From sequence record PV584117.1: DNA of 50,572 bases, one strand, 5' to 3'. This document shows positions 37,108-47,463 of this stretch, one piece after another (within the stretch, counting starts at the first letter, position 1; each line of letters starts with the position of its first letter). The position numbers and the translations under genes were made by a program. Below the pieces are notes generated by a model, which made no database searches, had not been told where the DNA came from, and saw only the letters and a list, made by a program, of their open reading frames with translations. This stretch comes from Escherichia phage XJA18-XJ-2024.

Positions 37108-37812
37108 ATGAAATTAATCTGGTCGCTATTCGACGGTTCCGGCCTTGCAGGTCATGAAATGGCTAAGCAAGGTCACAAGGTGATGTGCTTCAACTTTGAC
37201 GGAGCCGATCACGGGGATTATGCAAAGTACAATGCCCGAGTGGAGCATCCGAACATTGAGTATGTGAACGTGTTCATTGACGCATCGTTTGAGCGTGATG
37301 CTATCGCTGGCGTGTATGGCAAGCCGGATTTCATTATGGCCTTCCCGCCGTGCACTGACCTAGCTGTTAGTGGTGCCGCTCACTTCGCAAGAAAGCGTGA
37401 ACGCGATCCGTTATTCCAGGAGAAGGCTGTTGCCACCGCCCGGATTGCTGCAAATATTGGCGACGCCCTGGGCGTGACTTACATCATTGAGAATCCGGTT
37501 AGCGTCCTGTCATCTGCCTGGAGAAAACCAAATCACTCCTTCAATCCCTGGGAGTATGGCGGCTATCTTCCTGAGAATGACTCACACCCCTGGTTCCCGA
37601 TGTATATTGCGCCGCGCGATGCTTACCCGAAGAAAACTTGTCTTTGGACTTCGGACGATTTTGTCATGCCCGAGAGAAAACCTGTAAGCCTACCTGACGG
37701 GTACTCTGCGCAGCACAGTAAGCTAGGCGGCAAATCTGCCAAAACTAAGTTGATACGATCCCTGTCGCCCAGGGGATTTTTTAAAGCTATCGCGGATAGC
37801 ACTTTTTGTTAA
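37108..37812 (+). CDS. DNA (cytosine-5) methyltransferase, orphan
   Basis: 234 aa; motif I LFDGSG, motif IV FPPC, motif VI IENP; start at ATG with ACCAATCAGAGGAG RBS; no restriction partner seen. Confidence 0.65.
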   Translation: MKLIWSLFDGSGLAGHEMAKQGHKVMCFNFDGADHGDYAKYNARVEHPNIEYVNVFIDASFERDAIAGVYGKPDFIMAFPPCTDLAVSGAAHFARKRERDPLFQEKAVATARIAANIGDALGVTYIIENPVSVLSSAWRKPNHSFNPWEYGGYLPENDSHPWFPMYIAPRDAYPKKTCLWTSDDFVMPERKPVSLPDGYSAQHSKLGGKSAKTKLIRSLSPRGFFKAIADSTFC

Positions 37813-37814
37813 AA
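37795..37814 (+). promoter_or_regulatory. promoter cassette box
   Basis: GATAGCACTTTTTGTTAAAA; 22 bp to CATAAT; CATCGAAACGA box; overlaps methyltransferase stop. Confidence 0.55.
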
Positions 37815-37877
37815 CTTGATCGGTGTGATTTGGCATAATTATCTCATCGAAACGAGATACACATCAGGAGTTGGGAA

Positions 37878-38213
37878 ATGAAATACGAAAATCGCGGTAA
37901 CGAAATCATCAAAATCGAAAACGGCGTTGAGTACATCATGGTAGCTTGCAAGGTTAACGGTATGGATTCTTTCGTATGGGAAGAAATCAAAACTGAAGAC
38001 AAAGCAGCTAAATTCCTGACCTGTGTTAACCAGCCTGACGATGAACGTGACATCTTCACCCGTTACGGTAAATATGAAATTGTTCGCGAGACTGCCTGCT
38101 TCTGGTGGGTTAAGCCTAACAGCCAGTACAAATTCCCGCGCAAAATCAGCAAGCGCACCATGCGTGAAGCTGGCTTCAAGAAAGCATATGCCGCTGAGTT
38201 CGATATCGATTAA
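37878..38213 (+). CDS. hypothetical protein
   Basis: 111 aa; RBS GGAG. Confidence 0.5.
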   Translation: MKYENRGNEIIKIENGVEYIMVACKVNGMDSFVWEEIKTEDKAAKFLTCVNQPDDERDIFTRYGKYEIVRETACFWWVKPNSQYKFPRKISKRTMREAGFKKAYAAEFDID

Positions 38214-38230
38214 TAGCACGAATTGCTAAA
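38212..38230 (+). promoter_or_regulatory. promoter cassette box
   Basis: AATAGCACGAATTGCTAAA; 22 bp to TATAGT; hairpin CCCCGA/TCGGGG. Confidence 0.55.
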
Positions 38231-38287
38231 CGCCCCGAGTGAGATCGGGGTATAGTTAACACATCAACCAATCAGGAGAATCAACAG

Positions 38288-38518
38288 ATGGCAATTAAAC
38301 ACCCTGGGCTGAGGAAGGCAATTCAGCGCGCCAATGATGAGGGATTCATTGTCTACAGAACGCATTACGGTCACATGGGTGGCTTGAAAGAGCATCATAC
38401 AAAGGTTGAGCTTGTCGACTTGTGGGAGGATTACGATACATTCCAGTATATCGCCACGTCTGACGTAGAAGCGCAAGTGAAATACATCAACGACACAATT
38501 GATAGTTTCAGAGGGTAA
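38288..38518 (+). CDS. hypothetical protein
   Basis: 76 aa; RBS ACCAATCAGGAG. Confidence 0.5.
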   Translation: MAIKHPGLRKAIQRANDEGFIVYRTHYGHMGGLKEHHTKVELVDLWEDYDTFQYIATSDVEAQVKYINDTIDSFRG

Positions 38519-38522
38519 TTAT

Positions 38523-38894
38523 ATGTTTAAACAATTCGTAGACCTGGGCTTCTCAGCAAGCACAGCAATCCAGACTGACGAGAAAGAGAACGTAGCGATC
38601 GAGAACATTGCGCGAAAGATTTACAACAAGCAAGAGAAGGCAGTGAGAGCCGCTCTAAGCGCTTATTACGGCGTAAGTGATGCAATGGAGTGCGTGAACA
38701 GAGTAACCCGCGCTGTGGACCATTTAGGCGTGTCTCGCTTTATTGATAATGATACTGGAGAGACAATAATCCAGCTTAACAATCCATCAATGCGTACCGA
38801 GCTTGGCAATATTGCATTATGGGGCGTGGCTAACTACTCAATCACTGTAAACTCCTGCATTGCGGATCGTGTTAAGGAGGCATTGTATGAGTGA
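38523..38894 (+). CDS. hypothetical protein
   Basis: 123 aa; start at ATG with AGAGGG RBS. Confidence 0.45.
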   Translation: MFKQFVDLGFSASTAIQTDEKENVAIENIARKIYNKQEKAVRAALSAYYGVSDAMECVNRVTRAVDHLGVSRFIDNDTGETIIQLNNPSMRTELGNIALWGVANYSITVNSCIADRVKEALYE

Positions 38895-45665: not shown

Positions 45666-45743
45666 ATTTTAATCCTTACATGATAATGAAATACATTACT
45701 GAAAATGAAATTAGCGGTGTTAATACTACAGCAAAATAAAGAT

Positions 45744-46031
45744 TCATGCCACAGCCTTTAACCAGAATCCTAGATCTGACGATTTAAACTCAACCAGCTT
45801 TCCGTCAACCTCAAGCATCATACTGTTTCTACCAGGTGAGTAATAACCTATATGCAACTCCTGATCGATCCCTATGGTACACAGCACGTTTGCGAAGTCA
45901 GGAGGCAACCAATCAGAGAAAGGTATTTTCTTAACCTGCTTCTTTCCGATCCATATGGTCTGGTAATCGTCTTCGTTAATGTTTAAGCCTGGAAGGCTTG
46001 TTGTTCTTTGCTGCTTTTCGTTCTCTCTCAA
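45744..46031 (-). CDS. hypothetical protein (start uncertain)
   Basis: track ORF 45744-46145 overlaps 45976-46248 out of frame; candidate TTG start with GAGGGA RBS gives about 95 aa. Confidence 0.3.
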   Translation of the reverse strand: MRENEKQQRTTSLPGLNINEDDYQTIWIGKKQVKKIPFSDWLPPDFANVLCTIGIDQELHIGYYSPGRNSMMLEVDGKLVEFKSSDLGFWLKAVA

Positions 46032-46248
46032 TTCTCTTTCCCTCTTCACGATAAAACTCAAGTGACGGAGTTGCTGGCACTCTATGCATTTTTCTCGGCA
46101 TATCTTCCATAAATGAAATCTTGCCATTTGAGATAATGCTAACATCCTTTATATCGAAATATTTCGCTATTAGTGCTATATCGTCTGAGATTCCGCATTC
46201 CTTCGCGTGCTCCCAAACCTCTCGTTTACCTTGTTTTTTTATCAGCAT
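45976..46248 (-). CDS. hypothetical protein with HTH-like N-terminus
   Basis: 90 aa; N-terminal AKECGISDDIALIAKYF; basic C-terminus. Confidence 0.35.
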   Translation of the reverse strand: MLIKKQGKREVWEHAKECGISDDIALIAKYFDIKDVSIISNGKISFMEDMPRKMHRVPATPSLEFYREEGKRIERERKAAKNNKPSRLKH

Positions 46249-46435
46249 TGGTTAGTTTCTCCACGCTTTCAATAAAACACTCAACATCTTTGACTGAGCA
46301 GAGGTAATAAGCCATTTTAAGGAAGTTCATAGCAATATCCCAATCAAAGTTACCGCCTTTCTTGTCAGTGATATGAACAGCCATTTTTGCGGACTGTTGA
46401 GCGATATTGAAAAAGTTTGCGTTAATGCGTGCCAT
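46226..46435 (-). CDS. hypothetical protein
   Basis: about 69 aa from ATG preceded by GAGGAATAAGAAG. Confidence 0.4.
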   Translation of the reverse strand: MARINANFFNIAQQSAKMAVHITDKKGGNFDWDIAMNFLKMAYYLCSVKDVECFIESVEKLTNADKKTR

Positions 46436-46492
46436 CTTCTTATTCCTCATTTCGTTTTGATGAAATAACTATACCCGACTTTCGCCGGGTAG

Positions 46493-46512
46493 TTTTAGCA
46501 ATTAGTGCTGTA
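46493..46512 (-). promoter_or_regulatory. promoter cassette box
   Basis: ACAGCACTAATTGCTAAAA (minus strand); 22 bp to TATAGT; hairpin ACCCG/CGGGT. Confidence 0.5.
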
Positions 46513-46753
46513 AGATCGTGTCGGATTTAAGTTCTTCTACGTCTTTCTGAATGATTGAAGGCCAATGCTCGATGTGTTTATTCTTTATCTCATCGAACGA
46601 CATATCAAGAGAACTTGTAAACTCCCATAAATCGCAACCAATAACATCTTTAGTTAATCCGTTTCGCTCCATAATTTCGCAGCACGTAGCGCGATAAAGA
46701 AGCCATAACCCTTGATCAGTTAATTTAACAGGAACCATTTTTTCGCTCATCAT
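46502..46753 (-). CDS. hypothetical protein
   Basis: 83 aa; start overlaps Dam stop. Confidence 0.4.
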   Translation of the reverse strand: MMSEKMVPVKLTDQGLWLLYRATCCEIMERNGLTKDVIGCDLWEFTSSLDMSFDEIKNKHIEHWPSIIQKDVEELKSDTILQH

Positions 46754-47463
46754 ACTTTTCTCACCTTTGCTCGTTTGTTTTTAACGGAAGGACAAATGCT
46801 TGTGATTGGGATGTAGTGAGTCTGTTGCGTCTCACCTTCTTTAAGTTCGCGCATAATAAAAATAACCGAACCTTTGTTGTTGCCGTCTACGGCTTTTCCA
46901 GTTTCACCTGATATGAAAGCCAGACGACCGGATCGTGCGTATTCATTGCCGTCAATATCCTCAGTCAAATCAGCTTCAATCCAGATGATTTCAGCCGCGT
47001 GCTGTCGAGCCTCAGTAAACCACGCCGTCGAGTTATCGGCAGGTAAAAGAATATCGATCTGGTTGTTGTGCTCCATTTGCTCAATCGCTTTCTTGACGAA
47101 TATATCAGGTCGACTGTAAGGAGGATTTAACCATACGTGCTTATTTTTACCCCACCAACGTTTTAAGCAGTTTGTTTCCTGGGAATAAAACTTCTCGCAA
47201 ACTTTATTTTCTTCGCTTGCCGCAGCGTCGAGATCATATTTTCCGTAGCGACCCTCAAGGTATGCGATAACCTCGCGTGGGGTTGACCATAAATCACGAA
47301 CTGCGTCAGGTGTATTGGTTCCCTTGTATCGACGTCCTGAAATCTCTTTGCAGGTTGGCGTTTTCAATGCTTGATAATAACCTCCTGATGCTATTGCTTC
47401 GCGAGTGAATGAGCACCCAGTTTCTGCAAAGTCGATTGTTTCGATATCATTAAAGTCTTTCAT
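46750..47463 (-). CDS. dam: DNA N6-adenine methyltransferase (Dam-like)
   Basis: 237 aa; catalytic NPPY motif (WLNPPYS); RBS AGAGGA. Confidence 0.75.
   Translation of the reverse strand: MKDFNDIETIDFAETGCSFTREAIASGGYYQALKTPTCKEISGRRYKGTNTPDAVRDLWSTPREVIAYLEGRYGKYDLDAAASEENKVCEKFYSQETNCLKRWWGKNKHVWLNPPYSRPDIFVKKAIEQMEHNNQIDILLPADNSTAWFTEARQHAAEIIWIEADLTEDIDGNEYARSGRLAFISGETGKAVDGNNKGSVIFIMRELKEGETQQTHYIPITSICPSVKNKRAKVRKV

Follow-up and report, generated by a model that had tools for sequence, protein, structure and literature searches.

What does a T1-like phage gain from carrying two DNA methyltransferases when neither gene appears to belong to a restriction-modification pair? This question is raised by the genome of Escherichia phage XJA18-XJ-2024 (PV584117.1), which was analysed over its full 50,572 bp (hereafter the window) and contains one gene for a short protein resembling C5-cytosine DNA methyltransferases and another for a Dam-like N6-adenine methyltransferase (Table 1). 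The answer we consider likely is that this is a T1-like genome whose two solitary phage methyltransferases act on the replicating DNA of the phage itself, in the roles proposed below. Both enzymes are already known, in that they are annotated in relatives and one homologue of each has been studied experimentally.

The C5 open reading frame (ORF) encodes 234 amino acids (aa) and its ATG lies eight bases after a GAGGAG sequence. The ORF and the FDGSG, PPC and ENP motifs on which the original prediction was based were recovered in the translation and in a family alignment of 29 homologues that are 56-85% identical to the window protein, and the invariance of these motifs across the alignment therefore indicated purifying selection on an active enzyme. 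The protein matched phrog_757 ('DNA methyltransferase', 5.2e-84), and 14 of the 29 homologues gave weak matches to PF00145 (best E-value 1.3e-6). A confident AlphaFold2 model was obtained (predicted local distance difference test score (pLDDT) 87.7, predicted template modelling score 0.87), and the top 50 Foldseek hits with this model were all DNMT3A or DNMT3B methyltransferase domains, with E-values down to 1.2e-7; by this fold comparison, the class I methyltransferase fold of the protein is closest to that of C5 methyltransferases. The 234-aa protein is thus placed entirely by PHROGs, the fold comparison and the weak PF00145 matches of its homologues, while an hhalign comparison of the family with M.HhaI aligned motifs I-IV alone with a probability of 6.9% and serves for motif register only. 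The family represents a divergent branch of the PF00145 superfamily as judged by fold and motifs, not by profile. From the motifs and the model, the window protein is almost certainly a minimal C5-cytosine methyltransferase, with Cys82, Glu128 and an FxGxG pocket for S-adenosylmethionine (AdoMet), that would make 5-methylcytosine (5mC). It is very unlikely that it is instead a degenerate relic, a Dnmt2-like RNA methyltransferase or a transferase for some other group (e.g. carboxymethyl), given the purifying selection on the catalytic motifs and given that the homologue from phage K42 raises the 5mC content of multicopy single-stranded DNA (msDNA) as measured by liquid chromatography-mass spectrometry, an effect that depends on C82, E128, K175 and K176 (10.1101/2023.08.16.553469).

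The family is large and widespread: a large protein collection contained 4,866 homologous clusters, a homologue was present in 1,520 of 50,697 phage records, and its range includes Drexlerviridae, Dhillonvirus, Vequintavirinae, Klebsiella T1-like siphophages, Jersey-like Salmonella phages and others. The expectation that the enzyme is short for its class, with a minimal recognition domain, was borne out. Its 234 aa compare with 267-348 aa in the bacterial enzymes and DNMT3 catalytic-domain constructs that were aligned and with 472 aa in the host E. coli Dcm, which has a large recognition domain. The sizeable target-recognition domain that lies between motifs VIII and IX/X is absent, and this position is occupied by just the approximately 34 residues aa 182-215, between a motif VIII-like strand and a conserved C-terminal motif with a final helix that may be motif X-like by comparison with the DNMT3A sequence. 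At the place of the QxRxR arginines of motif VIII the putatively equivalent strand, PKKTCLW, has lysines instead, as judged from the alignment and the model. The protein differs from the DNMT3A/3B catalytic domain, M.HhaI and M.HaeIII (PF00145), which are longer (270-330 aa), in its approximately 34-aa recognition segment and probably in the Lys-Lys pair. The loop preceding the conserved KLGGKS run is hypervariable; among the 120 best homologues it was of the GYSxQ type found in the window protein in 87 and of the NPGW type in 21, and in a relative with 41% identity it reads LWFFWGW. Two hairpins that resemble terminators and carry T-runs were also found at 37759-37800 (plus strand), within the last 55 nucleotides (nt) of the C5 coding sequence and over SPRGF; these are probably incidental.

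The second enzyme could be assigned more directly. The Dam ORF encodes 237 aa, with the catalytic motif NPPY at aa 113-116 (nt 47116-47127, minus strand), and its identification in the original prediction was confirmed by matches far above the cut-offs to PF05869 (4.8e-69, 231.8 bits against a cut-off of 28.1) and to the TIGR01712 equivalog 'phage N-6-adenine-methyltransferase' (phage_N6A_met; 4.1e-71, 237.8 bits against 97.05). It is 98.7% identical over 237 aa to T1 Dam (YP_003925.1; M.EcoT1Dam, gene ST20), from which it differs by three amino acids, and synteny is conserved: both proteins have 237 aa, and in both genomes the helicase and VRR-NUC genes precede dam and an 83-aa ORF follows it. 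The T1 enzyme was already known in the 1980s. By sequence, the window protein is almost certainly the T1 Dam orthologue and is predicted to methylate the adenine of GATC.

For T1 itself the activity was established by DpnI/MboI digestion, in which T1 DNA from a dam- host was sensitive to DpnI, i.e. T1 Dam makes G(m6A)TC, where m6A is N6-methyladenine (PMC10470545). A dam deletion made in T1 by CRISPR grows on a dam- host with its GATC sites completely unmethylated, and the host Dam methylates T1 DNA only partially (PMC10470545). The deletion lowered the burst size from about 52 to about 32 (about 40% lower) without any restriction system and also in dam+ cells (PMC10470545), and Dam therefore has a role beyond anti-restriction. 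Phage Dam might thus serve mainly DNA metabolism, with full methylation aiding replication, recombination, mismatch-repair avoidance or headful packaging, an explanation that would be compatible with the one we prefer and to which we give somewhat less than an even chance. It agrees with the reduced burst, with the partial methylation by host Dam and with the location of dam, conserved across T1-like phages, in a replication/recombination module beside the helicase and VRR-NUC genes; however, the T1 dam mutant is viable, and no unusual clustering of GATC was found anywhere in the genome, the signal near the equivalent of the left end of the T1 record not being significant.

Neither methyltransferase gene adjoins a sequence-specific restriction enzyme, as the original prediction had stated. 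Ten flanking ORFs were searched against Pfam and no nuclease family beyond VRR-NUC was found, with just a weak Metallophos (phosphoesterase) match in a 383-aa protein (ORF383), and none of the PADLOC nuclease models was matched by ORF111, ORF383 or the DUF3987 helicase. The annotations of relatives include no restriction enzyme, and the same synteny without one is seen in other T1-like contigs. Both methyltransferases are orphans with no restriction partner evident, a conclusion that these scans support. ORF383 (44514-45665, minus strand) is the counterpart of T1 ST16 and matches phrog_704 ('DNA repair exonuclease', 7e-157), a label that the Metallophos match fits, and it has a helix-turn-helix-like N-terminal region. 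ORF111, which follows the C5 gene, was considered as a Vsr-like or nuclease partner and rejected, as it had no Pfam or PADLOC match and no fold match (best E-value 0.62), and in a more distant relative it does not neighbour dcm. It is lineage-restricted, with 14 homologue clusters that are all from T1-like contigs, and its model had a pLDDT of 68.8; no terminator-like site was found after it in the window, though one is annotated in one relative.

The VRR-NUC nuclease and helicase genes adjoining dam had been missing from the earlier account, and their order, with a helicase (ResIII), a PD-(D/E)XK-type nuclease and an adenine methyltransferase, superficially resembles a type III-like restriction-modification unit with split Res and Mod functions. 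The helicase even matches PADLOC restriction-enzyme helicase models weakly, but these matches do not extend beyond the generic Helicase_C region and nothing in PADLOC matched VRR-NUC, whereas Dam matches the PADLOC 'orphan methyltransferase' (oMTase) model PDLC03721 over its full length (1.9e-171). Such a unit is extremely improbable and was rejected: the nuclease and helicase have T1 counterparts (ST21 and ST22), translational coupling links the VRR-NUC gene to the helicase gene and not to dam, a terminator-like hairpin separates it from dam, and a T1 mutant without dam can grow with unmethylated GATC on a dam- host and hence does not restrict itself (PMC10470545). Judged by their sequences, the two genes are conserved T1 replication/recombination genes and not a restriction partner.

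Information on the C5 family comes from related phages. In LeonhardEuler (Bas13), bas13_0055 is annotated in BASEL, by homology alone, as 'Dcm-like C5 cytosine methyltransferase'; this 234-aa protein shares 97.9% identity with the window protein, and its gene likewise stands first after a divergent intergenic region (about 686 bp) and before an ORF111 homologue, so that there is essentially no difference between the two. The Dcm of KarlJaspers (Bas06), bas06_0055, belongs to the same family (236 aa, 55% identical to the window protein), and its gene too is part of the early cluster that precedes the DUF3987 helicase gene, with several small ORFs ahead of dcm there. Phage K42, in which the enzyme has been studied, has a genome reported to be 95.4% identical to that of KarlJaspers, with which the window was compared (10.1101/2023.08.16.553469); the numbering of C82, E128, K175 and K176 is identical in K42 Dcm and the window protein. 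K42 escapes retron Ec86 through deletion, frameshift or down-regulation of dcm, the deletion and frameshift escapers being viable and one of them having lost 2.3 kb including dcm (10.1101/2023.08.16.553469). Expression of K42 Dcm was toxic solely when Ec86 was present, and a dcm-type gene was found in 34 of 35 Ec86-sensitive phages (10.1101/2023.08.16.553469, since published as Wang et al., Cell Rep 2024). The chemistry would be that of E. coli Dcm and M.EcoRII (CCWGG), both of which make 5mC, and CCWGG is also the site proposed for the K42 homologue. No direct mapping of a recognition site for the C5 family was found in our literature searches, and, given the loop variation described above, CCWGG specificity and the triggering of a retron are extended to the window enzyme by inference only.

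The distribution of recognition sites in the whole window was compared with expectation. Fifteen 6-bp palindromes were absent (GAATTC, CTGCAG, GGATCC, GGTACC, CCATGG, GCATGC, TCCGGA, GGCGCC, GCCGGC, ACCGGT, CCGCGG, CTCGAG, GAGCTC, GGGCCC and CCTAGG), for which about 97 occurrences were expected in total, and AAGCTT was found once against 20 expected; GATATC (EcoRV), with 29 sites, was not avoided. Neither GATC (251 sites, 0.82 of expectation) nor CCWGG (90 sites, 0.90 of expectation) had been purged. Nowhere in the genome are CCWGG sites as dense as within the C5 gene itself (37401-37600), where 200 bp hold 5 sites (Poisson P 3.5e-5 for an interval of this length). The gene as a whole has 6 CCWGG sites compared to 1.7 +/- 1.1 in synonymous-codon shuffles, none of which reached 6 (0 of 2,000 to 3,000; z about 4), and this enrichment ranks first among the 64 palindromic motifs and the 75 genes compared. 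It is common to LeonhardEuler and SA12KD and absent from KarlJaspers and the Salmonella homologues, and the adjacent leftward early genes at 33537-34022, 34295-34552 and 35908-36423 are CCWGG-rich too, so that the enriched stretch covers 33500-37812. The cluster may represent lineage-specific chance. A stretch of structural genes from position 20059 onwards has no CCWGG for 4 kb.

Taken together, the mechanism that we propose would be as follows. The phage Dam would convert GATC to G(m6A)TC at the 251 sites, faster and more completely than the host Dam, and the C5 enzyme would make 5mC by way of Cys82, Glu128 and the AdoMet pocket, probably at the site proposed for its K42 homologue, CCWGG. 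With the 6-bp palindromes purged, the two enzymes would methylate two short, frequent motifs that had not been purged, and this methylation would block nucleases of the MboI/DpnII type (GATC) and the EcoRII type (CCWGG); Dam may additionally support a normal progeny yield. A possible cost for the window phage would be that the methylation is sensed, as K42 Dcm triggers Ec86. Anti-restriction is the standard hypothesis for the methyltransferases of Drexlerviridae (PMC7552041), and we put the odds that it is the main selective reason for keeping the two genes at about even.

Several observations weigh against this explanation. In BASEL there was no simple link between methyltransferase genes and resistance to restriction, and restriction-modification systems acted strongly on most Drexlerviridae (PMC8594841). 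Methylation by T1 Dam gave no protection from a Dnd system that recognises GATC (PMC10470545). T1, which has no C5 gene, has a similar CCWGG content (83 observed against 102 expected) and LeonhardEuler is no different, and sequence composition therefore gives no sign that CCWGG sites are protected. The C5 protein itself gave no sequence match in Pfam (even at E=10 and including PF00145), NCBIfam, PADLOC or the PDB, and the 29-sequence family profile was likewise without a match in the sequence-database searches. It shares just the 55% identity given above with the Dcm of KarlJaspers, the close relative of K42, and its putative loop is GYSxQ and not NPGW. The CCWGG specificity of K42 Dcm was taken from the host Dcm and the name of the gene and was not mapped, and Ec86 is not self-triggered in dcm+ MG1655, for which the paper does not discuss a reason (10.1101/2023.08.16.553469).

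The last points could also mean that the C5 enzyme is not CCWGG-specific and that another or shorter site is set by the hypervariable loop of about 25 residues, with different loops reading different sites, which we consider a tentative and rather unlikely alternative. The small size of the segment in the target-recognition position and the existence of at least three loop variants would suit this alternative, as would the assumed nature of the K42 site, the failure of the host Dcm of MG1655 to trigger Ec86 and the low 5mC content of control msDNA. On the other side, mutating the CCTGG sequence of the msDNA abolished defence against K42, which is the sole support for CCWGG in that study (10.1101/2023.08.16.553469). 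That CCWGG is the most enriched palindromic motif in the C5 gene is suggestive. Furthermore, MG1655 carries McrBC and K42 plates on this strain, from which RmC sites (R, purine; mC, methylcytosine) would be unlikely targets. A more far-reaching possibility, which we regard as unlikely, is that the window protein, as a member of the commonest (GYSxQ) loop subtype, belongs to what is perhaps the smallest natural family of DNA C5-methyltransferases, that its site may differ from CCWGG, that the short loop would be a swappable specificity module and that the concentration of CCWGG in its own gene and in the early genes beside it would be functional (in self-targeting, regulation or sensing) and not due to chance.

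The C5 and dam regions both gave nucleotide matches with 90-99% identity to Tunavirus and other Drexlerviridae phages, including Shfl1, ADB-2, Sfin-1 to Sfin-6, phi2457T, SA12KD and LeonhardEuler; the C5 region was matched by about 66 phage records, compared to about 98 Escherichia/Shigella/Enterobacteria/Tunavirus records for the dam region. The whole window was collinear with phage T1 (NC_005833) in BLAST comparisons, and its two ends mapped to the neighbouring T1 positions 35914 and 35915, and PV584117.1 therefore represents a complete, circularly permuted and arbitrarily opened Tunavirus (T1-like) genome from the Shfl1/ADB-2/Sfin/LeonhardEuler group. Because of this permutation, terms such as 'right arm' and 'rightward' have no physical meaning. 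The placement of dam in the right arm is thus arbitrary, and of the claim that the C5 gene opens a rightward operon there remains that it is the first gene of a plus-strand cluster, located after an AT-rich divergent intergenic region of about 680 bp. In the same comparison, the T1 HNH homing-endonuclease genes ST8 and ST15 were apparently without counterparts in the window, leaving gaps in the collinearity (window 40574-40579 and 44488-45414 against T1 46085-46624 and 42028-42510).

The window region 36947-38521 had no T1 counterpart in BLAST. This 1.6-kb segment comprises the last approximately 160 bp of the intergenic region, the C5 gene, ORF111 and ORF76, and it is located exactly at the junction between the end and the start of the T1 record, beside the annotated 2.8-kb terminal repeat of T1. 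The C5 gene thus looks like an accessory gene and, from sequence comparison, the segment resembles a cassette at a genome-end-proximal position. The retron-sensing cost would explain the patchy distribution of the gene. In SA12KD and Sfin-1 an ORF of about 70-77 aa precedes the C5 gene and overlaps the methyltransferase start; comparison of window positions 37016-37111 (plus strand) with positions 1717-1950 of a related sequence indicated that about 139 bp of this preceding ORF have been cleanly deleted, leaving a 31-aa remnant, and the ribosome-binding site (RBS) of the deleted ORF therefore now serves the methyltransferase. Within the intergenic region, the part at 36560-36740 is very AT-rich (TATATA-type), with inverted and direct repeats and divergent promoter-like sites, and could be regulatory or origin-like. 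On the far side of this region, an ORF on the minus strand (35622-35882) matches PF25180, 'Phage antiviral trigger protein Gp54' (8.5e-35), and could be a second potential defence trigger about 1.2 kb from the Dcm-like gene.

Table 1. Coordinates of the two methyltransferase genes, their motifs and neighbouring features in the window.
Feature	Position	Strand	Evidence and remarks
AT-rich intergenic region between divergent genes; promoter-like sites, GAGGAG RBS of the C5 gene	36424..37107		Left part, 36647-36946, corresponds to T1 positions 312-1 (left end of the T1 record)
Dcm-like mini C5-cytosine DNA methyltransferase gene, 234 aa (predicted)	37108..37812	+	ORF, motifs
Motif I, FDGSG (AdoMet-binding FxGxG), aa 8-12	37129..37143	+	G10, S11 and G12 invariant, F8 at least 90% conserved in 29 homologues; aligns with M.HhaI FAGLG
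Motif IV, PPC, aa 80-82, with predicted catalytic Cys82	37345..37353	+	P80 and C82 invariant; aligns with M.HhaI FPC; C82 mutated in inactive K42 Dcm
Motif VI, ENP, aa 128-130, with Glu128 (ENV-type glutamate)	37489..37497	+	E128, N129 and P130 invariant; E128 mutated in K42 Dcm mutant
K175-K176, start of the motif VIII-like strand PKKTCLW	37630..37635	+	K175 invariant; strand 177-181 in model; the pair is proposed to bind substrate in K42 Dcm
Minimal segment aa 182-215 in target-recognition position: hypervariable loop and conserved KLGGKSxKTK run	37651..37752	+	Lower pLDDT; loop differs among family members
Conserved C-terminal motif IRSLSPRGF, running into the last helix	37753..37779	+	I216, R217, S218, L219, R222 and G223 invariant; helix 222-232 in model
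ORF111, small protein downstream of the C5 gene	37878..38213	+	phrog_29431 (unknown function)
Dam-like N6-adenine methyltransferase gene, 237 aa, T1 Dam orthologue (predicted)	46750..47463	-	PF05869, TIGR01712, PDLC03721; 98.7% to T1 YP_003925.1
Terminator-like hairpin between the VRR-NUC gene and dam	47495..47514	-	Rho-independent terminator annotated at the equivalent position in T1
VRR-NUC nuclease gene	47531..47947	-	PF08774, 2.8e-13; 92.8% to T1 ST21; 4-nt overlap with helicase stop
Superfamily 2 (SF2) helicase gene, ResIII and Helicase_C	47944..49962	-	Orthologue of T1 ST22 (ATP-dependent helicase) by collinear position; 90%-identical DNA block

If the proposed roles are correct, the window phage would be a textbook case of a phage that avoids 6-bp palindromes and also methylates its own DNA at two short, frequent motifs, and it would illustrate how an enzyme of counter-defence can turn into the trigger of another defence. 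The family also raises the question of how a segment of approximately 34 residues sets the specificity of a C5 methyltransferase in each of the loop subtypes, which would be of interest to methyltransferase enzymologists and to those who wish to predict the sensitivity of phages to retrons, EcoRII-type and type IV systems.

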